The notes under the pieces are model-generated. The model ran no database searches. It had not been told where the DNA came from and saw only the letters and a program-made list of their open reading frames with translations. Below, in pieces: positions 2,391 through 63,940 of a DNA stretch of 64,000 bases; position 1 is the first letter of the stretch, and each line of letters opens with the position of its first letter. The position numbers and the translations under genes are program-made. The stretch comes from a virus (lineage: Duplodnaviria > Caudoviricetes): positions 11,750 to 75,749 of the IMG/VR virus record IMGVR_UViG_3300040801_001355, one strand, 5' to 3'.

Positions 2391-3710
2391 ATGAAATATG
2401 ACAATAGAGCGGTAACAGATGGCGTCAGAAGTTCGACGTCAGTATTGCCTAAAAAGATTGTCGATGACATTGACTGGCAGATAAGAACACTTGAGCCAGA
2501 AGCAACTCCTCTTTACACATTAGGTCAGGTGTTAGGTACGGGACCAAAGCCCACTAATCACAAAGTCCAAGTAACGCAATATCACGCGTTCGACCATTAC
2601 GACTACTGTTCTAACGTGTATTTGGGAGCTGATGTAGCAAGCGGCGGCTGGGAACGATTCGCACGCTTAACTCTTGACCAACCATCAAGACCATCAACAG
2701 GGAGCACAAACATGTTCTACCAACCTCGCGATAAATTTTATATCGCGTCAACAGGTCAGGTAGTCGAGGTAGTCGTAACCCCAAGAAGCAATTACGATGC
2801 GCACGGGACAGCAATGGTAGTACCAACGGTATTGGCTGGAACAGGTGCATCAGATACGGTAACAACTGGCACGTCCACAGCGGGCACAGTGGTTGTTAGA
2901 AACCTTACGCCAGACCCTATCGCACCATTCTCTCAATCTGACGTTATTTATCTTGGTAACGCAATTTCTGAGTCCCAAGATATTTTAGCTGAACCATCTC
3001 AACGTGACATCTTGTTTGACTGTAACTACGTGGAACACCACGAGAAAGTTATTACGATGACAGAAGACCAATATAAGTGGGTGCAAACTCATGGGTCTGT
3101 TCCTGAGTGGAGCTTCCAACAAAGAGAAGCAATGAAAGAGATGAAGAAAGATATAGATTACCTTGCATTCTTTGGCGAAAGAGCAGTCAACTTTGATGTT
3201 GAGAATAGGCCAGCACGTCACATGAGAGGGTTGTTAAACTCAATCCAAACTAACGTGGCTTATTATAACCCTGCTTCCACGGTTGATTTTGAATTAATGT
3301 TTGCGAATTTCTTGCATAACCAAGCTTTCCGTTATAACCCTAACGGCAAAAATAAGATTGGTATTTGTGGGCCAGACTTCTTGTTCAACTTTAACATGGC
3401 GTTCAGAGAATTTAGAAGAACAACTGATATTGACGTAAAAGCTAAAAAAGCTGGTCTTGATATTGATACATATAAAATGCCGTCGGGCTACACTATATCA
3501 CTTACTTCTTCTGAGGTATTCCGCAGAGGAACTGCGATGAGTAATTGGTGTTTCATTATCGACCCAATGGAAGCTGAATGGAGAATAGTAAAAGACTTCT
3601 CTACTCGTCCGTATCAATTAGCTACTCAACGTGACATTAAGTTAATGATGGAATGGCAAGGCACAATTGCTTGGCATTTAGAACAATCACACGCACTTTT
3701 AAGAACTTAA
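2391..3710 (+). CDS. Major capsid protein (HK97 fold, DUF5309/SU10-like) with beta-rich insertion
   Basis: 439 aa; TPLYTL near the N-terminus, KEMKKDIDYLAFFGER..RHMRGLLNSI and a C-terminal beta region; strong RBS; follows scaffold. Confidence 0.75.
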   Translation: MKYDNRAVTDGVRSSTSVLPKKIVDDIDWQIRTLEPEATPLYTLGQVLGTGPKPTNHKVQVTQYHAFDHYDYCSNVYLGADVASGGWERFARLTLDQPSRPSTGSTNMFYQPRDKFYIASTGQVVEVVVTPRSNYDAHGTAMVVPTVLAGTGASDTVTTGTSTAGTVVVRNLTPDPIAPFSQSDVIYLGNAISESQDILAEPSQRDILFDCNYVEHHEKVITMTEDQYKWVQTHGSVPEWSFQQREAMKEMKKDIDYLAFFGERAVNFDVENRPARHMRGLLNSIQTNVAYYNPASTVDFELMFANFLHNQAFRYNPNGKNKIGICGPDFLFNFNMAFREFRRTTDIDVKAKKAGLDIDTYKMPSGYTISLTSSEVFRRGTAMSNWCFIIDPMEAEWRIVKDFSTRPYQLATQRDIKLMMEWQGTIAWHLEQSHALLRT

Positions 3711-3723
3711 TAGGAGATAGACA

Positions 3724-4392
3724 ATGAGATATATAAGTCCATACGCAAATTTAAAATTGTATCGTAAAGATGGCACAATAGCACATGAGTTCGTAAACGG
3801 CGTACTGGTTGTTGGTGACCAAACTACTACGAATGGCACAGACCTAACGACTAATACATTGGGCTATGTTGTTGACGCATTTGAATATAGCGGCACACCT
3901 GAAACCGAAGTTTTCCAAATTTATTCTACTACCTTAGATGGTGGCGCAGATGACAGATGGGAACTTGCAGGACAAGGCTCGTTAAATGGCGTTGATAATA
4001 ACGGCGATGCGCTGACTAACCTAGAAGATGGTTATAGAGGCTTCTTCTTTGAAGCACCTAAACTATCTGGAGCAGATGGCGCGTCAGCTACAGAAGGTGT
4101 CTGGTATGAAGTGTTAGAAGGCTCTGTAACATATGGTGGTACTGAGTACACGATAGGCCAATTCTTTGAAACAGACGGCGATGCGACAGTAGTAACTGGT
4201 GACGGTTATTATGCGTTAGCTTTGCCTGAGTCCTTGCGTAATAAATGCAAGTGCTTCTGTGCAGAAGAGTTTAAAATAAAGCACCTACAATATGGAGATG
4301 AGCCATTGAGCTACTTCTTCTTTGGGGAGGGATTTAAGCCGCGTAACAGTATGACAACTACAGACGCAGACTTCTACGGATGGATACGTTAA
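3724..4392 (+). CDS. Putative capsid decoration/auxiliary protein
   Basis: 222 aa, G/T/D-rich and beta-type, directly after the capsid gene and before a terminator. Confidence 0.4.
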   Translation: MRYISPYANLKLYRKDGTIAHEFVNGVLVVGDQTTTNGTDLTTNTLGYVVDAFEYSGTPETEVFQIYSTTLDGGADDRWELAGQGSLNGVDNNGDALTNLEDGYRGFFFEAPKLSGADGASATEGVWYEVLEGSVTYGGTEYTIGQFFETDGDATVVTGDGYYALALPESLRNKCKCFCAEEFKIKHLQYGDEPLSYFFFGEGFKPRNSMTTTDADFYGWIR

Positions 4393-4409
4393 ATAGATTT
4401 TAAATATAT

Positions 4410-4463
4410 GGTGGCGGGCTTTAGTTAGCCTCCTCGCTCTCTCTTGCTCGTCACCTTTTTTTT
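4410..4463 (+). terminator. Intrinsic terminator-like stem with long loop
   Basis: GGTGGCGGGC (4410-4419) pairs with GCTCGTCACC (4446-4455) including 2 G-U pairs, followed by T8. Confidence 0.55.
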
Positions 4464-4489
4464 ACAAATATTTTTGAGGAAGCGAGACT

Positions 4490-4909
4490 ATGGCAGCAAC
4501 AAAAAATTCAAATACGGCAGGCACTGTCACTAAAGTTGAAGAAAAAGATTCGTCTACTGGAAGGGTAGTCGAAAAAATTATTTTGCAAGAGGCAGCAAAA
4601 CCAGATTACCTAAGATATGAAGCACGTCACATTCTGAACGATAGTAAAAACAACGCGAAGAATATCAAGACGTTCTTATCACCTAAGAAAAGCTTGTCTT
4701 TATTTGGCAAGAGTTATGACAACAAAGGTTTTGTGATTACATTCAAAGCCTCTACCTTTGAAACGGATGACCCAGATTTAATTGAATTTCTACAAAATCA
4801 TCCGCAATATGAGGTTGCATTCTTTGAAGGCAAATATCCAAAAAGCGTGTTAGACCAAATTGAGAGAGACCACAAAATGTTAACGCGTGACCCAGACGAA
4901 TATAAATAA
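4490..4909 (+). CDS. Hypothetical head-region protein
   Basis: 139 aa ORF with GAGGA RBS. The segment FETDDPDLIEFLQNHPQY resembles small proteins often found after capsid genes. Confidence 0.5.
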   Translation: MAATKNSNTAGTVTKVEEKDSSTGRVVEKIILQEAAKPDYLRYEARHILNDSKNNAKNIKTFLSPKKSLSLFGKSYDNKGFVITFKASTFETDDPDLIEFLQNHPQYEVAFFEGKYPKSVLDQIERDHKMLTRDPDEYK

Positions 4910-5989: not shown

Positions 5990-6744
5990 CAGCGTTACAA
6001 ACAATAAATATAATACGCTCACTACTTGACGATGGCTTAGATTGGTTTCCGACTTTGCAGCAAACTATTGATGCAATTAACGAAGCTCAACGCAGAGTTG
6101 TGCATGAAGCCGTCAGAAGAAGAGACCAACGTATATTACGTCCATTAATCTATGAAGACAGAGTTGTCACAGAAGAAAATAATGCGGTAACCGCGGAGAT
6201 GCGAACTGTGGATAGTAGCGGCAATATAAGGTACGCTATGTTTCCTGTTTCATGCCGCATCACTGAGTATACTACTAACGCAAAGTTAAGTAGACCAGGG
6301 GCGAAAACGTTTGTAGCACGCTGGATGCCGTACAATACTTTTATGAATTACTATGGGCAAGCTCCTGTGCGACGTCCAAGTTACACAACAGGCTTACAAT
6401 ACCCAAGAGATGCTATCTATACTTTTAATACCTTTTATACAGGTGAGCCAATATTCGGGCCACGAGTATCAACGACAGTGAAATTTAATTATAACGACAT
6501 TGACTTTGATTATGCGGACGTTAAATTTATAGCGTATCCAATTGACTTTGTGTATGATGATGCTAATTGGTCTAATAATGTCGGCCTGGAATTACCCAAA
6601 GAAGTTCATCCGAAAATAATATCAATGGCGGCAGAGCTATTGAACACAACCGACGTCAATGAGTTACAGCGAGGCCGCGCTGTTAGCACGCAGCAAAATA
6701 GAGTTACATTAGATAAGTCAGAGGTAAGCCATGATAACTCCTAA
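5986..6744 (+). CDS. Tail ring/adaptor protein 2
   Basis: MTALQTINIIRSLLDD..IDAINEAQ and LPKEVHPKIISMAAE; ATGA-coupled paralogue. Confidence 0.6.
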   Translation: MTALQTINIIRSLLDDGLDWFPTLQQTIDAINEAQRRVVHEAVRRRDQRILRPLIYEDRVVTEENNAVTAEMRTVDSSGNIRYAMFPVSCRITEYTTNAKLSRPGAKTFVARWMPYNTFMNYYGQAPVRRPSYTTGLQYPRDAIYTFNTFYTGEPIFGPRVSTTVKFNYNDIDFDYADVKFIAYPIDFVYDDANWSNNVGLELPKEVHPKIISMAAELLNTTDVNELQRGRAVSTQQNRVTLDKSEVSHDNS

Positions 6745-59057: not shown

Positions 59058-59430
59058 CATACGCTTTAAACGTGTTGCTGTCAGGTATCAATTAAATTGT
59101 CAAAGAACTATTTTTTAATATACAATTAATATGCCAAAAAAGCATTTTTAACTGTCTTATAAAGAAACTGTTTTAATTTCCTTATAAGGCAATTAAACTG
59201 CCTTATTTTTAAGCATAACATATATTAAAATATACGTCATACCAACTCTTGCACGTTTCAAACCAAATTAATATATATAATTCTCATTTTCCTATCAAAT
59301 ACCATGCCAAATGATTAGAGTGTCAAGTTTATTACACAGTATTACGTAGAATAGATGTAACTTGCTAAGTATCAATGAGTTAGTTCTTGTGTCAGATATA
59401 TTTCACACTGTCAGATTAATTACACACAAT

Positions 59431-59570
59431 CTATATTGCTATGCAGTAATATTGCTCTTCGGTAATATACTATATTGCTATGCAGTAATATTGCTATGCA
59501 GTAATACGGTGGGGGGTCATGCAACATTATCACATCAAGCACCCACAAACTATATTGCTATACAGTAATA
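59431..59570. repeat. Four copies of the imperfect palindrome TATTGCTAT(G/A)CAGTAATA
   Basis: Copies start at 59434, 59473, 59489 and 59553; 26-mer CTATATTGCTATGCAGTAATATTGCT is identical at 59431 and 59470. Confidence 0.85.
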
Positions 59571-59597
59571 TAACGATGTAGTAAAACTACTACAACC

Positions 59598-59617
59598 TTG
59601 TAGTAATATTACTACAA
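59598..59617. repeat. 20-bp perfect palindrome
   Basis: TTGTAGTAAT-ATTACTACAA. Confidence 0.9.
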
Positions 59618-59711
59618 TGACAAGTTTACTTTACATTATGACAAGTTGACATGACATTATGACAAGTTGACATGACAGAGGGACGTGACAAAATGACAGA
59701 GGGGCATGACA
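59618..59711 (+). repeat. TGACA iteron-like cluster
   Basis: Ten TGACA in 94 bp, including a 21-bp tandem duplication ACATTATGACAAGTTGACATG (59633-59674). Confidence 0.85.
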
Positions 59712-60013
59712 AAACGGCAGGAGGAGGATCATTTTCTATTAATGGAAAGGGAGGGGTAGCTCACATTCCTGGGCTGAGGCTGCGGGGGGATACCCCATTC
59801 ACCCAAAATTAGTAAAATTTAGATTTTGGCATGAAAATTGCAGGACTTCAAAAAGAATCATAACAGACCCCCGTCCCCCTTTTATATATAAGGAGAAAAG
59901 CTTGGCAGGGGGTAGTACCCTAAAAAGTTTTTTTTGGGAAAAATTACCAACAAAACTCATCGTCGCCTACAAAATGTGTGGGCGTATTATAAATAAAACC
60001 ACAGGAGTATTAC

Positions 60014-60568
60014 ATGAATTTCTCAATAAAAAATATTGAGGCTATATTAGACGACTTGTTTAATGTGCACGCAGAAGAAGCGAAAGACAACATGGGCGAA
60101 ATCAGAACCAGAGCCATCTTAAAAAGGAGTTACGACAAACTCAGAGAGGTCGGGCACATTGACAGAGTATTGTCGCAATATGAGATAATGCTTGAAGAAT
60201 TATACGATAGTACAGATGATTACTATGAGTTAAGCTTAGATATGGCTACGTTGAGTCTTATTATGACTATTATTGATGCTGAGTTTTTCAGAGGATATAT
60301 CAAAGAGAGGTGGCCCAATCTATACGTAGAAGAAGGTATTGATGTGGCCACGCAAGTAGCTACACAACAAGATTTCTTTAATGAATTAGCAAAATTAAAA
60401 GAGCGAGGCAATAACGACGATAAGTTGCACGCGGCTTTATCAGCTTACGGATTAAGCCAAGCCAATAGCTTAGGGGGGCAGTTGGCGAGCTTAAACAAGA
60501 TATTAGAATACCGCGGTAAAAAAGACGACTCTAATAATCCAGGTTTAATAATACCACAGAGTAATTAA
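60014..60568 (+). CDS. Hypothetical protein, possible terminase small subunit
   Basis: 184 aa helical, AGGAG RBS; QLASLNKILEYRG resembles TerS C-terminal helices; lies next to the repeat region. Confidence 0.35.
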   Translation: MNFSIKNIEAILDDLFNVHAEEAKDNMGEIRTRAILKRSYDKLREVGHIDRVLSQYEIMLEELYDSTDDYYELSLDMATLSLIMTIIDAEFFRGYIKERWPNLYVEEGIDVATQVATQQDFFNELAKLKERGNNDDKLHAALSAYGLSQANSLGGQLASLNKILEYRGKKDDSNNPGLIIPQSN

Positions 60569-60569
60569 A

Positions 60570-60959
60570 ATGGCATTAGCACAGAGCTACGACATAGCGG
60601 ACGAGATAATAACTCTCGTCTGCAATGTCTCAGGACTAAGTAAGAGCGAGTTGTTAGGCAGAGATGGGCATAACGAATATGCGGTGCCACGAGCACTATC
60701 CGTCTATATGACATACACTTACACCTTACTAACTTACGCAGAAATCGGGAGGTTATATGACAACAGAACTCATCCATCATTATTAAGCATGATAGAAACG
60801 GGGCGGGTGTATGTAATGCAACAGCCACATATAACACATATATACAATGGGTTAGTAAAAAAGTTAAAAGACAAATTTGAATTAGGCGACTTCCAAGGTT
60901 ACGTGTTTCCAGAAGAACGACACGCTGCTCGAGAAGCCGAGTTAAGGAGGGGAGAGTGA
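60570..60959 (+). CDS. Stand-alone DnaA domain IV (DnaA C-terminal HTH)-like protein
   Basis: IITLVCNVSGLSKSELLGRDGHNEYAVPRALSVYM..LTYAEIGRLYDNRTHPSLL parallels DnaA ..R.IAMYL...SL.EIG..FGGRDHTTV. Confidence 0.8.
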   Translation: MALAQSYDIADEIITLVCNVSGLSKSELLGRDGHNEYAVPRALSVYMTYTYTLLTYAEIGRLYDNRTHPSLLSMIETGRVYVMQQPHITHIYNGLVKKLKDKFELGDFQGYVFPEERHAAREAELRRGE

Positions 60960-60981
60960 TTGCAAAAAAGGAAATTGAGAA

Positions 60982-61212
60982 ATGAAAGATAAAGATTATA
61001 TACAAAAACACATTATGCAAAGAAAAGAGGAACTGATAGAGCTTGAAGAGTTTTGGCAGACATTCAAAGACCAAAACGAAAAGCTGAAATTTTATTCAGG
61101 AGCAGTTTATAGTATCCAAGCGGAAGTTAGTAGCCAAATGGCTTTTCTTCAAAGGTCGATTAATGACCATGAAAAATTGTTAAAATCAAACAAACAGGAG
61201 ATTGAGAAATGA
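60982..61212 (+). CDS. Small coiled-coil protein
   Basis: 76 aa helical. Confidence 0.5.
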   Translation: MKDKDYIQKHIMQRKEELIELEEFWQTFKDQNEKLKFYSGAVYSIQAEVSSQMAFLQRSINDHEKLLKSNKQEIEK

Positions 61213-61373
61213 AATTACATGAAATTATTGAAGTACATCAAGAACCTTATTTTAGAAAAATGAGAGTAGAGGGTGGATTTATGTATAACTTTTACGATGT
61301 CGAAAGAGATGAATATAGACAAGAATGGACTTTTGTTCCTGATGCAAGCGACGGTTCTAATAAAATGCAGTAG
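61209..61373 (+). CDS. 54-aa hypothetical protein (not in ORF track)
   Basis: MKLHEIIEVHQEPYFRKMRVEGGFMYNFYDVERDEYRQEWTFVPDASDGSNKMQ; AGGAG RBS, ATGA overlap. Confidence 0.6.
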   Translation: MKLHEIIEVHQEPYFRKMRVEGGFMYNFYDVERDEYRQEWTFVPDASDGSNKMQ

Positions 61374-61440
61374 CGCACAAACAAACATTGGATAGAAGCA
61401 GAACGCCAACCTGCGCTATTCATTTTATTTATTGTTGGCA
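61346..61440 (+). mobile_element. attC-like imperfect hairpin (degenerate)
   Basis: ..GCGAC-GGTTCT-AATAAAATG(C)AGTAGCGCA ... TGCGCTATTCATTTTATT-TATT-GTTGGCA; one extrahelical C; 95 bp. Confidence 0.45.
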
Positions 61441-61455
61441 TTTCGTTTTTGAGCG

Positions 61456-61725
61456 ATGGCAGAATTTGGAGCAGCACTTAAAGTAAAAAACCCTGACTTT
61501 TATTGTCAGAATGTATGTGGCGAAGTTGATTTTTCAATTGATGAATGGAATAAAGCATTTCAATATTGTGAAGATGCTGGAATTGAAGGGGAAGAAAGAG
61601 ATAGGATTTTAAGCCCTGAACTATTCCCATGTGAAAAGCAATGTGAAGCCTGCATAAACATAGTATTAGATACCCAATTGAAAAATAAGCGAGCAAGGGA
61701 AGCACGGATGAGCGTAGGCAAATGA
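61456..61725 (+). CDS. Cys-rich hypothetical protein (cassette-like ORF)
   Basis: 89 aa with CxxxC and CxxxCxxC; flanked by GTTGGCATT and AATGCCAAC. Confidence 0.55.
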   Translation: MAEFGAALKVKNPDFYCQNVCGEVDFSIDEWNKAFQYCEDAGIEGEERDRILSPELFPCEKQCEACINIVLDTQLKNKRAREARMSVGK

Positions 61726-61767
61726 ATGCCAACTGGTGGTTAAACGGAACTTTAAATAAAAGATATA

Positions 61768-61986
61768 ATGATGAATGATTTAAATATATTTGATGAAAAC
61801 GGCAAGGCATTACATATAGCTGATGTTATAAGCCGTTTTAGGTTTAAGTTAGAGGTAAACGCTGGTAGATTAGCTGAACCATTAATAAACCAAGGAAAGC
61901 AACCAAAAGAAGATAAGGATTGCCATAAAGCATTTTTAATGTTAGCCCACTTAGCCGAGATTGAAGATTATTTAAATGGCTTATAA
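61768..61986 (+). CDS. Hypothetical protein (cassette-like ORF)
   Basis: 72 aa; its stop TAA lies inside GGCTTATAAC, the reverse complement of GTTATAAGCC at 61825. Confidence 0.55.
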   Translation: MMNDLNIFDENGKALHIADVISRFRFKLEVNAGRLAEPLINQGKQPKEDKDCHKAFLMLAHLAEIEDYLNGL

Positions 61987-62057
61987 CGTAAATATAAACG
62001 TAATACGCTTTAACCGTCGTTACGAGTGGTTAAACGAAACAAAACGGAGATTGAAGA

Positions 62058-62393
62058 ATGATACTCATACACACTGATAGTTTGACAGCACGGTGCAACG
62101 ATGATAATTATCTCGTTCATATTATAGGCAATGGCATTGGGTTAGAAATCCCAACACTTAACGTAGCCTTGCGTATAAATATGAAGAAGGAGAGCTTAAT
62201 GACTGCACGTAAATTAATGAATTACATTTACTTAAATAACAGTGTACACATTTCTCCGACTCTTATTATAGTACACAATAAGTTGGGAGATGACAAATTA
62301 CACAAAGATTGGCACATAGAAATTAAACACCCTATCATATACAACTTAGATGTATGGAGGGAATTTGGTCACATAAATCAAAAGGAGATATAA
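62058..62393 (+). CDS. Hypothetical protein
   Basis: 111 aa, GGAG RBS. Confidence 0.5.
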   Translation: MILIHTDSLTARCNDDNYLVHIIGNGIGLEIPTLNVALRINMKKESLMTARKLMNYIYLNNSVHISPTLIIVHNKLGDDKLHKDWHIEIKHPIIYNLDVWREFGHINQKEI

Positions 62394-62394
62394 A

Positions 62395-62754
62395 ATGGTA
62401 GTATCAGTAGCGGATAATTTAGACGCACCAGGTGTCGTGCAAATAACATTTATGGCACAGGAGAGCCAGCTTGCCAAGGGGGACAACGTTGATTTTGACG
62501 ATGCGCTTGATGTAGCGATGTGGTTATTACGTAGTCAATATAAGCTTTTGCGTGAAGGCCACATACTTCATCAGCAGATAAAGGAAAAAGTCAAGGAAGA
62601 AGTCTTACCACAAAAATCAAAAACAGCCTTTGACGCTATACAAAAAATAAAAAATGATGCTTTGAAAGCCGTCGAGAAAAACGCACCGACATTTAAACAG
62701 ATAGAAAGTAGCGACGAGTTGTTTAAGAAGATGACGGGAGAAGATTTGACATGA
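62395..62754 (+). CDS. Hypothetical protein
   Basis: 119 aa, AAGGAG RBS. Confidence 0.55.
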   Translation: MVVSVADNLDAPGVVQITFMAQESQLAKGDNVDFDDALDVAMWLLRSQYKLLREGHILHQQIKEKVKEEVLPQKSKTAFDAIQKIKNDALKAVEKNAPTFKQIESSDELFKKMTGEDLT

Positions 62755-63719
62755 GAACTTTATCGTTTAAATTAGGCTCGGATGGTTGGGTGGACTTACC
62801 GCCCCTAGATAACACGATTAGCAGGCATTATTCTTTATACGAAATAATAACACAGGCATTCGGTATATCTATACCTCGAAACCCCGACCCATTCTACGCT
62901 CCAAGGCCACCATACTCATACGTTGGGAGTATGCGCAGAATAAGTATCTCGTTAATTGGGAATGATGCAATTCAGTTTAGAGCAAAGACCCAATATGACA
63001 GCGGTAAAAAGTATTACGATTATTTCAAATTGAGCGCTCCAGAGCAAGTTGTGTTATCCTATGTATTACACAAAACTATACATGGCGATAATGTAAATGA
63101 ATATTACAAAGAAATAGCTCATCGTTTTATCAGGGCATTCAGTAAAAAGTACGCTCAAGAATTACGTAAGGTAGCACAAACATGGTTGGTCAAGCAAGAG
63201 TTAAACGAACCAGACAGGTTTGTTGTTTGCAATGAAAGAGAGAGAGTGAGGATTAAAGAGTTATTATTAGGCTTTTTAAACGGGGGGAAAGATGTATTGC
63301 TTCCTGAGCAAACAATCTTAGAGAAATTGGCGGAAACGGGAAACGTCGATGAGCCAGGCGACAACGATAGAATACAATTATTAAAGTACGATGGCTACCA
63401 TGGGTTTAGATTTGTAGGCAGAGATAGCGTGGGAACCGACAGATACAGTGGTTATCCAAGCACCAGCGACCAAGACGGGATACTTGGTGTTGCAGAGCGC
63501 GCAATGCGTATGGCGCGTACACCACCATCATCATCGTTAAACTATAGCGGCAATTATATATGGACGTTTGAAAATGGAGCGGTTATAAATTTAGGGGGCG
63601 TTCAAGAAAGAGTGGTATCAGGCAGGCTATCGGAGTCATGGCGTCCATCGGACGAAGAAATAAGAGAATCTATAGCAAATGATACAGAATTAGAAACAGA
63701 ATTAGAGGAGGAAGAATGA
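62751..63719 (+). CDS. Hypothetical protein
   Basis: 322 aa, ATGA-coupled, acidic C-terminus. Confidence 0.55.
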   Translation: MRTLSFKLGSDGWVDLPPLDNTISRHYSLYEIITQAFGISIPRNPDPFYAPRPPYSYVGSMRRISISLIGNDAIQFRAKTQYDSGKKYYDYFKLSAPEQVVLSYVLHKTIHGDNVNEYYKEIAHRFIRAFSKKYAQELRKVAQTWLVKQELNEPDRFVVCNERERVRIKELLLGFLNGGKDVLLPEQTILEKLAETGNVDEPGDNDRIQLLKYDGYHGFRFVGRDSVGTDRYSGYPSTSDQDGILGVAERAMRMARTPPSSSLNYSGNYIWTFENGAVINLGGVQERVVSGRLSESWRPSDEEIRESIANDTELETELEEEE

Positions 63720-63940
63720 ACAAGGAATTGATTAAAGTTTTATCTAATGCCAAGTTAAGCGACAGAGCCAAGAAGTTTGCAATAGCAATGTATGTTGTTA
63801 TTGAAAGCCAAGAATCATTAGATAGCACAACAGAGCAAGAAGTCTATAGTAAGGTGTGGCAGGAAAGTATAACAGACGCCGAAGTGCGTATAGCCATAGC
63901 AGAGTTAAAAAACACAGAGTTGTTTAATGCCATCGTATAG
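63716..63940 (+). CDS. Small winged-helix-like protein (resembles replication-initiator N-termini)
   Basis: LSDRAKKFAIAMY ... ITDAEVRIAIAEL; GAGGAGG RBS. Confidence 0.4.
   Translation: MNKELIKVLSNAKLSDRAKKFAIAMYVVIESQESLDSTTEQEVYSKVWQESITDAEVRIAIAELKNTELFNAIV

Follow-up and report, generated by a model that had tools for sequence, protein, structure and literature searches.

Analysis of a stretch of 64,000 nucleotides (nt) of phage DNA (positions 11,750 to 75,749 of IMG/VR record IMGVR_UViG_3300040801_001355, hereafter called the window) revealed two adjacent single-gene units at 61353-61987, which lie directly behind the constant part of a resident early gene (o54) and each carry one small open reading frame (ORF5 and ORF6, respectively). 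We regard them, with a probability of about 0.65, as two cassettes of an integron-like system endemic to Bacteroidota phages. The initial annotation, made from the sequence alone, had described integron-cassette-like units with relics of attC sites in this region and had proposed that they were captured from a host integron or from a group of clustered attC sites without an integron-integrase (CALIN). This interpretation was partly supported: units with complementary core and inverse-core ends were found, and these ends are kept in relatives, while the cassettes appear to belong to an integron-like phage system and not to be attC relics of a host integron. The evidence comes from the architecture of the sites, the covariation of their arms, the boundaries of the units, and the linkage of such units to a recombinase gene and a docking site in related phages; the window itself holds its units in an orphan state, with no recombinase detected.

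Unit ends, folding sites and unit boundaries

The comparison was based on 18 viral loci retrieved with ORF5 and on a second set of more than 80, from viruses and metagenomes, retrieved with ORF6 or with its first 22 codons; none of them has the other ORF or any further neighbour from the window. In related Bacteroidota phage contigs, a 13-nt box of the form AAT[G/T]-N5-YAAC was found at gene ends 238 times on the gene strand and 57 times on the opposite strand, with 54 expected. A perfect 9-nt partner of the form GTTR-N5 was located upstream of 97 of 227 distinct boxes (43%), compared with 0.6% after permutation of N5, at distances of 11 to about 1400 nt, mostly 130-350 nt. In the following, the upstream partner is called R' and the box at the gene end R'', while L'' and L' denote the two arms of the folding-site helix. 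N5 differed from gene to gene, resulting in more than 35 different pairs, and the next four bases were found to covary, AATG occurring with CGTT and AATT with AGTT, always with one G.T on the sense strand. Because the pairs with one mismatch showed G.T in 23 cases and A.C in 6, the pairing appears to be selected on the sense strand. Overall, the form of the unit ends, 5' GTTR-N5-(T)[C/A]GTT and 3' AAT[G/T]-N5-YAAC, brackets dozens of different small genes. A miniature inverted-repeat transposable element with terminal inverted repeats was rejected as an explanation, as the middles of the arms differ from unit to unit.

Within the window, the strings which had been reported as complementary ends were all present, namely GTTGGCATT at 61434-61442 and AATGCCAAC at 61725-61733 for ORF5, and GTTATAAGCCGTTT at 61825-61838 and AAATGGCTTATAAC at 61974-61987 for ORF6, the latter with 13 of 14 positions matching and a sense-strand G.T wobble as the mismatch; the ORF6 stop codon TAA lies inside TAAC, as described. 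The pairs 61434-61446/61721-61733 and 61825-61837/61975-61987 fit the unit-end form of the phage family, the ORF5 pair as a variant with an additional T before CGTT. In the window alone, 76 inverted repeats were counted in 5 kb, with neither pair ranking among the longest 25, the z-scores of folding range from -1.3 to +0.6 for the three putative sites, and an Rfam search of the window sites gave nothing above noise. Taken alone, the inverted repeats of the window are not above chance; they become significant through the family, because the 13-nt architecture recurs with 43% perfect partners against 0.6% in the control.

The conserved element ahead of ORF6, together with the first 22 codons (..IFDxNGKALHIADV), also heads more than 20 otherwise unrelated small proteins, with the similarity stopping after GATGTTAT. 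Its string GGCATTRCATATAGCY represents the 3' arm of a 16-bp helix, the 5' arm of which (GGCTATGTGYAGTGCC) is found about 85 nt upstream. Over 52 distinct sequences, 98.7% of the cells of this helix were paired, compared with 20-46% when the partner was slid. One pair was compensated 13 times (U:A to C:G), three positions are G.U, and beyond the 16 bp, TATAAC pairs with GTTATA. In locus L112, the two arms match at 25 of 27 positions, with a fold z-score of -5.6. In general, the R and L boxes of the relatives pair with G.T wobbles and without conserved bulges, in sites of about 60-150 nt, compared with 57-141 nt for canonical attC sites, which fold as single strands with extrahelical bases. A promoter combined with an N-terminal peptide signal before ORF6, e.g., a capsid-targeting leader, was considered and dropped, the "leader" being the covarying 3' arm of the helix; judged from this covariation, it seems not to be primarily a peptide.

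Two "empty" units, L082 740-768 and L099 2121-2149, consist of arms separated by TCGTTTTAATG alone, with no cargo. The same 11-nt loop also forms the apex of compact sites in Polaribacter phage P12002L. Insertion of cargo into the hairpin loop was kept only as a variant for these short "empty" hairpins.

With respect to the boundaries (junctions are marked by a slash), the block of similarity shared by 14 ORF6 loci begins at AAC/GG.., includes ORF6 and, ahead of it, a conserved element about 65 nt long, and ends at ..TTATAAC/, and the DNA of the ORF6 unit revealed 91% identity to L049 inside this block and about 53% outside. Three unrelated cargos, in L235, L221, and L244, are enclosed by the frame of the ORF5 unit as well (its hairpin site upstream, followed by the arm GTTGGCATT-TCGTTTTT and, at the end, ..AAATGAATGCCAAC), and the window and these three loci all diverge directly after the AAC/ of the R'' box. 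For ORF6 as well as for the ORF5 frame, similarity to other carriers ends at AAC/ on both sides of the unit. Loci L074 and L077, the flanks of which are 99.6-100% identical, differ by a 337-nt unit consisting of a site and an 81-aa ORF, which has only TAAC in common with its target, and the difference between L098 and L103 is a 526-nt unit between two boxes. The exact 16-mer GTTGGCATTTCGTTTT gave 51 matches in viral contigs, three of them in cassette form; the 46 matches with no AATGCCAAC partner within 1.6 kb were taken as unrelated.

Phages L036 and L037, both of which carry relatives of ORF5, showed two differences of another kind, neither with an AAC box: a 1029-nt intein-like insert in a conserved gene of L036 (3190-4220; C...HN/C junctions), and an 879-nt difference comprising a methyltransferase gene in L037 (1843-2723).

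A recombinase gene and a docking site beside the units

Of five large carrier contigs, three have a gene for a tyrosine recombinase, which in G002, L071, and L016/L024 follows directly after a cassette. The protein has a length of 265-266 aa and harbors the domains PF00589 and PF13495. It reached 190 bits against the XerA/integron-integrase model of NCBIfam (cut-off 220) and, in the phage recombinases compared with TIGR02249, 157-170 bits (cut-off 265), with the match falling into two stretches. Judged from its sequence, the enzyme seems to be located near the Xer/IntI branch, under every cut-off, and to be too short for the IntI insert.

Eighty viral loci were then chosen by the recombinase protein alone. 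They contained 116 perfect box pairs on the recombinase strand, all of them upstream of the recombinase gene, five on the other strand, and none downstream. At 21 loci, the last box ends 43-53 nt ahead of the recombinase ATG. Past the last AAC/, the sequence is conserved as TAT(A)TTATATAT.. (the TATTATATAT site, which we call the docking site), and the sequences before AAC/ are unrelated between loci. Read on the opposite strand, the order is recombinase, docking site, G/TT, cassette, cassette, i.e., the order of an integron. An all-against-all search for indels beside the recombinase, at an identity of at least 85%, resulted in nothing useful.

At locus L221, the frame of cassette 1 of the window sits exactly at the docking site, with ..AATGCCAAC/ followed by the attI-like TACTATATATA. 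On the minus strand, after 6499-6507 in reversed coordinates, a recombinase remnant of nine codons (MKKLNYYEI, stop) was found, followed by a gene for a Walker-A ATPase, so that this platform appears to have lost its enzyme.

With regard to the hosts, a contig of a Prolixibacteraceae metagenome-assembled genome (L119, WTWZ01000033.1) contains at about 3030-4570 an array of clustered regularly interspaced short palindromic repeats, in which a 37-nt repeat occurs at least 20 times. One of its spacers is identical to the L'-R' arm of the cassette site (..GGCATTGCACATAGCCGATGTTATAAGCCGTT), a direct host link of the carrier phages to Bacteroidota.

The two units of the window and their surroundings

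Table 1. Features of the two putative cassettes of the window and of the flanking sequence (window coordinates)
Feature	Position	Strand	Remarks
o54, resident early gene, constant part	61209..61352	+	48 codons, ...PDASD
Cassette 1 unit (ORF5)	61353-61733	+	contiguous with cassette 2
Folding site, cassette 1 (site A)	61353..61446	+	spacer GGTTCT, L'', 34-nt loop, L', spacer TATT, R' arm
L'' arm, cassette 1	61359-61377	+	AATAAAATG-C-AGTAGCGCA, bulged C at 61368
L' arm, cassette 1	61412-61429	+	TGCGCTATTCATTTTATT
R' arm, cassette 1	61434-61446	+	GTTGGCATT-T-CGTT
ORF5, cargo of cassette 1	61456..61725	+	89 aa
R'' box, cassette 1	61721..61733	+	AATGAATGCCAAC; last 9 nt perfect complement of 61434-61442; cassette ends AAC/
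Cassette 2 unit (ORF6)	61734-61987	+	directly after cassette 1
Hybrid folding site, cassette 2 (site B)	61734..61837	+	degenerate 5' half without L''; contains ATG at 61768
L' arm, cassette 2	61806-61821	+	GGCATTACATATAGCT, then spacer GAT
R' arm, cassette 2	61825-61837	+	GTTATAAGC-CGTT
ORF6, cargo of cassette 2	61768..61986	+	72 aa
R'' box, cassette 2	61975..61987	+	AATGGCTTATAAC; complement of 61825-61837, 13 bp with one G.T
Sequence past the last cassette	61988..62057	+	local hairpin TTTAACC-N12-GGTTAAA (62010-62035)

The left junction of the first unit (Table 1) cuts the resident gene o54. Its family consists of 32 clusters, mostly of 84 aa, which have the first 48 aa in common and then continue with at least five unrelated tails (proteins P0160-P0186); P0160 is identical to the window sequence through PDASD and different beyond. 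Because the tails of the family switch exactly there, 61352/61353 seems to be a recurrent recombination breakpoint. The last six codons and the stop codon of o54 (61353-61373) come from cassette 1, and the same holds true for the upstream ORF in L235. A frame joining o54 across both units (61988-62077) is open, yet unlike the tails of the o54 family, for which reason the units probably replaced the original tail of o54 and did not simply split the gene. Excision of both units as a way of restoring o54 was rejected on the same grounds.

The imperfect hairpin with a bulged C, which had been reported for 61346-61440, was found again: computed folding of site A revealed a stem of 9 + 8 bp with a single bulged C at 61368. 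The stretch 61353-61462 is 93% identical to L235 (102/110), with flanks and cargo at background level (46-58%), and the last 33 nt of the cassette 1 frame show 82% identity between the window and L235. In L221, the stem underwent a compensatory change from TAGCGCA:TGCGCTA to TGGCGCA:TGCGCCA. ORF5 belongs to a family of 52 protein clusters and was found on 18 viral contigs, with P0001 as the nearest relative (94%). Six cysteines are invariant in this family (C17, C21, C38, C59, C63, and C66; pattern CxxxC...C...CxxxCxxC), which suggests a small metal-binding protein. A search of ORF5 against Pfam and PHROGs gave no match, its AlphaFold model was poor (pLDDT 57), and structure and atlas look-ups of both cargos provided no lead.

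For the second unit, the non-complementary halves which had been noted at 61727-61831 were corroborated: the 3' half of site B is the conserved L'-R' arm of the widespread element, identical in more than 50 loci, and the matching 5' arm is missing. The first 22-24 codons of ORF6 (..IFDENGKALHIADVISRF) are encoded by the folding site itself, and the ORF6 family comprises 106 protein clusters. Downstream of the unit, neither an R' arm nor the attI-like TATTATATAT was found in 61988-62057, and 61981-62040 contains the AAC box with its GTT partner absent. The start codons of ORF6 and of the gene behind it are each preceded, at a distance of exactly 17 nt, by a copy of a 14-nt direct repeat (TGGTTAAACGRAAC and TGGTTAAACGAAAC, at 61737-61750 and 62027-62040). 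TGGTTAAACGRAAC was matched five times, compared with 2.3 expected at up to two mismatches, and may be a regulatory or ribosome-loading element of the operon.

The window is part of a phage contig with genes for a portal, a head protein, a RecE-like exonuclease, ERF, and SSB. Positions 60000-63800 had no DNA match among cultured phages, and no sister phage of the window was found via a neighbouring 322-aa protein. PF00589 was detected in none of 34 ORFs of the window, and tblastn with either phage recombinase gave no match in its 64 kb, which agrees with the earlier statement that no integrase is present there; the attI-like docking site TATTATATAT was likewise not detected in these 64 kb, which are part of a longer contig. 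Within its 64 kb, the window thus holds orphan units and no platform. Its three site positions within 650 nt on the plus strand, with no recombinase detected in 64 kb, correspond to a CALIN in a loose sense only, namely with sites of the phage family, a CALIN being defined by two or more attC sites on one strand within 4 kb and no integrase nearby. 

A large divergent gap elsewhere in the window carries iterons. This gap of 1 kb with 32% G+C harbors at 59390-59720 iteron-like direct repeats of three 21-nt and three 37-nt units, and probably serves as an origin of replication or as a control region. About 850 nt downstream of these repeats begins a gene with DnaA domain IV (60570-60959), the sole match of ten local ORFs to Pfam and PHROGs.

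Proposed mechanism, alternatives and relation to known systems

In the model that we propose, a unit spans from one AAC/ to the next and is composed of a folding site, the cargo gene, and an R'' arm (AATN-N5-YAAC). The folding site is ordered as spacer, L'', loop, L', spacer, and R' (GTTR-N5-NGTT), with a loop that can carry a promoter region, the start codon, and the first codons. In a circularised unit, R'' would be brought to the site, and R''/R' (13 bp) together with L''/L' (up to 16 bp) would form one long sense-strand hairpin, mimicking the two-box core site of a recombinase as attC does. In platform phages, the array of units ends at AAC/ beside the TATTATATAT site and the gene for the 265-aa Xer-type recombinase without an IntI insert. 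This Xer-like enzyme would be the catalyst, excising and inserting units by strand exchange at AA/C (G/TT on the other strand) with the docking site or another unit. As a route of entry, we infer that the units of the window came in trans, e.g., in a co-infected cell, and that a secondary site (GAC/) within the 3' end of o54 received them; there they would now persist as an orphan pair similar to a CALIN and be expressed as part of the early operon.

Several observations weigh against this reading. Most of the cassette-bearing loci (L005-L013, L049-L116) have no recombinase within 4-5 kb, though many of them are short fragments. Breakpoints are not limited to AAC/: loci with a leader-encoding site diverge after GATGTTAT, and loci with the ORF5 frame swap cargo inside the arms, which would also fit homologous recombination in any conserved stretch. 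In the window, the triplet at the left junction is GAC instead of AAC, the long stem of site B cannot form because its 5' arm GGCTATGTGYAGTGCC is missing, and neither unit could be shown to have moved recently, with no sister phage of the window found. The wobble bias on the sense strand is equally expected for an RNA structure. Finally, a published site of the family, P12002L_attC1, which is the published one most like the sites described here, did not recombine with IntI1, according to Qi et al. 2023 (PMC9892861).

Some of these points would be accounted for if the hairpins acted in the mRNA, i.e., in processing, stability, or translational coupling of each small early gene, and the genes were shuffled through their linkers by homologous or microhomology recombination with no dedicated recombinase. 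We consider this unlikely, though it is the strongest of the alternatives. Pairing in the mRNA sense is selected, as seen from the three G.U positions of the 16-bp helix and the excess of G.T in the arms (23 to 6), start codon and leader of the following gene are part of the sites, and breakpoints occur at several points of conserved stretches. Gene-boundary indels were also identified in box-less phages (L040/L048 and L036/L037), and a precedent exists in the promoter early stem-loop (PeSL) elements of T4-type phages (Arbiol et al. 2010, PMC2839356; Comeau et al. 2014, PMC4122927). However, the 4 nt (TAAC) shared by the L074 insertion and its target are too little for homologous recombination, all 116 pairs share the strand of a tyrosine recombinase gene and lie to one side of it, and an RNA role does not predict that the arrays stop at a conserved AAC/TATTATATAT, 43-53 nt ahead of this gene. 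In addition, the invariant GTT/AAC ends correspond to the crossover triplet that integron sites universally have (Escudero et al. 2016, PMC4792948). A role in RNA and a role in recombination could coexist.

PeSL elements are also similar to the phage cassettes in that small early genes without known function, flanked by a repeated promoter/stem-loop, are acquired, lost, and exchanged as units among related phages. In contrast, they are direct repeats serving homologous recombination and have neither unit-specific complementary ends nor a GTT/AAC core or a linked recombinase, while the unit ends in the window are inverted and not direct repeats.

The origin proposed in the initial annotation, i.e., canonical integron cassettes taken from a host integron or CALIN by host IntI, is very improbable. 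The GTT...AAC layout and the stop codon inside the inverse core are in its favor, and Qi et al. 2023 (PMC9892861) reported CALINs, as well as attC sites recombining with IntI1, from virulent phages, a Polaribacter phage among them. Of the attC-like character of the sites, the cassette ends stood, as did the attC-like folding in site A, and the assignment to canonical attC did not: as had been noted, the cores deviate from strict GTTRRRY (R' GTTGGCA and GTTATAA, R'' TGCCAAC and TTATAAC, site-A box AAGCGAC), and of GTTRRRY/RYYYAAC only GTT/AAC fit, with two of four degenerate positions missed per box. Every relative of both ORFs that could be placed is located on a viral or metagenome phage-like contig, and nothing points to capture from a host integron. 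Regarding host IntI, no match to TIGR02249 above the cut-off was obtained, neither in the phage contigs, whose recombinases reached 170 bits (cut-off 265), nor in three Bacteroidota genomes that have the element. The platform observed is phage-borne, with a short Xer-like recombinase, and not that of a canonical integron, and the polarity is reversed compared with an integron cassette, the ORF lying downstream of the site and on the folding strand. The failure of the published family site with IntI1, mentioned above (PMC9892861), likewise does not fit canonical attC.

That both inverted repeats are chance matches in AT-rich intergenic DNA is already refuted by the family pairing and the recurrence of the ORF5 frame: the pairs are unremarkable in the window alone, about 1.5 perfect 9-mers are expected per 700 bp from base composition, and boxes are not enriched in the window (five found, 7.6 expected), yet around other genes in many contigs the arms are seen again, including the extensions (T)CGTT/AATG, and only the boxes of ORF5 and ORF6 sit at gene ends, exactly at the ends of consecutive ORFs.

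With integrons and CALINs (Cury et al. 2016, PMC4889954), the phage system has the following in common: the tyrosine recombinase belongs to the Xer/IntI branch, and its gene lies next to a docking site and to single-gene units arrayed in one direction; each unit is delimited by an imperfectly palindromic site in which two boxes (R and L) pair and GTT/AAC is invariant; the ends are complementary and unit-specific, with junctions at G/TT on the other strand; and orphan clusters without the enzyme occur, as in CALINs. It differs in its enzyme of about 265 aa, which scores lower than the IntI cut-offs and is too short to accommodate the IntI-specific insert, in R stems of 13 bp and L stems of up to 16 bp with wobbles in place of extrahelical bases, and in the position of the site upstream of its ORF, where it can encode the start and first 22 codons. 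Furthermore, the ORFs are oriented towards the recombinase gene, the folding strand is the one that carries them, and the carriers are phages.

In the literature, as far as the available texts go, no paper was found on unit-specific ends, leader-encoding sites, the short recombinase, or the docking site, and only Qi et al. 2023 (PMC9892861) touches the system. In that study, a screen of 10,705 phage genomes yielded 17 CALINs, one of them in Polaribacter phage P12002L, in which two attC sites were identified by HattCI and handled as ordinary attC. P12002L_attC1, as given in Table S3 of that paper, maps to the minus strand of NC_028924 near 30057-30005 and is a site of the phage family (TGCTAAC-GG-...-TCGTTTTAATG-...-GTTAGGC), in which the YAAC-GG start, the loop, and the end fit. 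Gene gp37 of P12002L, beside attC1, is bracketed by GTTGGCAGT-AGTT and AATT-ACTGCCAAC. The P12002L CALIN and the phage system share the host phylum; unit-specific 13-nt ends, leader-encoding sites, an Xer-like recombinase, and a docking site are not described in the available text of PMC9892861.

As for the origin of integrons, Escudero et al. 2016 (PMC4792948) discussed extrahelical bases and the I2 insert, along with the possibility that integrons arose from a viral, Xer-like source, and described the joint origin of the integron enzyme and its folded sites as a chicken-and-egg paradox. In the XerCD integration of CTX phage treated there, a Xer-type enzyme without an I2-like domain acts on a single-stranded phage hairpin, which has no extrahelical bases and mimics a duplex site, in likeness to the phage system (PMC4792948). 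It differs in that a whole genome is integrated into the host dif site by host enzymes, with no cassette array and no phage-encoded recombinase. The pdif modules of Acinetobacter plasmids are gene units between inverted Xer-type sites and are thought to be moved by Xer recombination; they differ by full 28-bp duplex XerC/XerD sites at both ends and the use of host enzymes, and to our knowledge they have neither a folding site with R and L boxes nor an array beside a recombinase.

Beyond the assignment to the phage family, we propose only tentatively, at somewhat less than even odds, that the units are mobile elements of an undescribed phage-borne counterpart of integrons, in which an Xer-type enzyme without an I2 insert would act on sense-strand hairpins without extrahelical bases. 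The orphan pair would then reflect delivery in trans to secondary sites, spreading small early genes, possibly with counter-defence functions, across phage lineages. In this case, the "viral, Xer-like ancestor" of integrons on which Escudero et al. 2016 speculated would have a living candidate. In bacteria, integrons are the textbook example of a gene-capture device, and a widespread phage system with the layout of an integron, a plain Xer-like enzyme, and bulge-free hairpins would make the question of their origin testable at the bench, with sites of the system being present in cultured Polaribacter phages. To this, the window adds enzyme-less cassettes in a phage otherwise unrelated to the usual carriers, together with a junction cutting a resident gene; the pair would be the phage equivalent of a CALIN at a secondary site. 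If true, the system would also account for the exchange among phages of small early genes, on which the outcome against host defences often depends.

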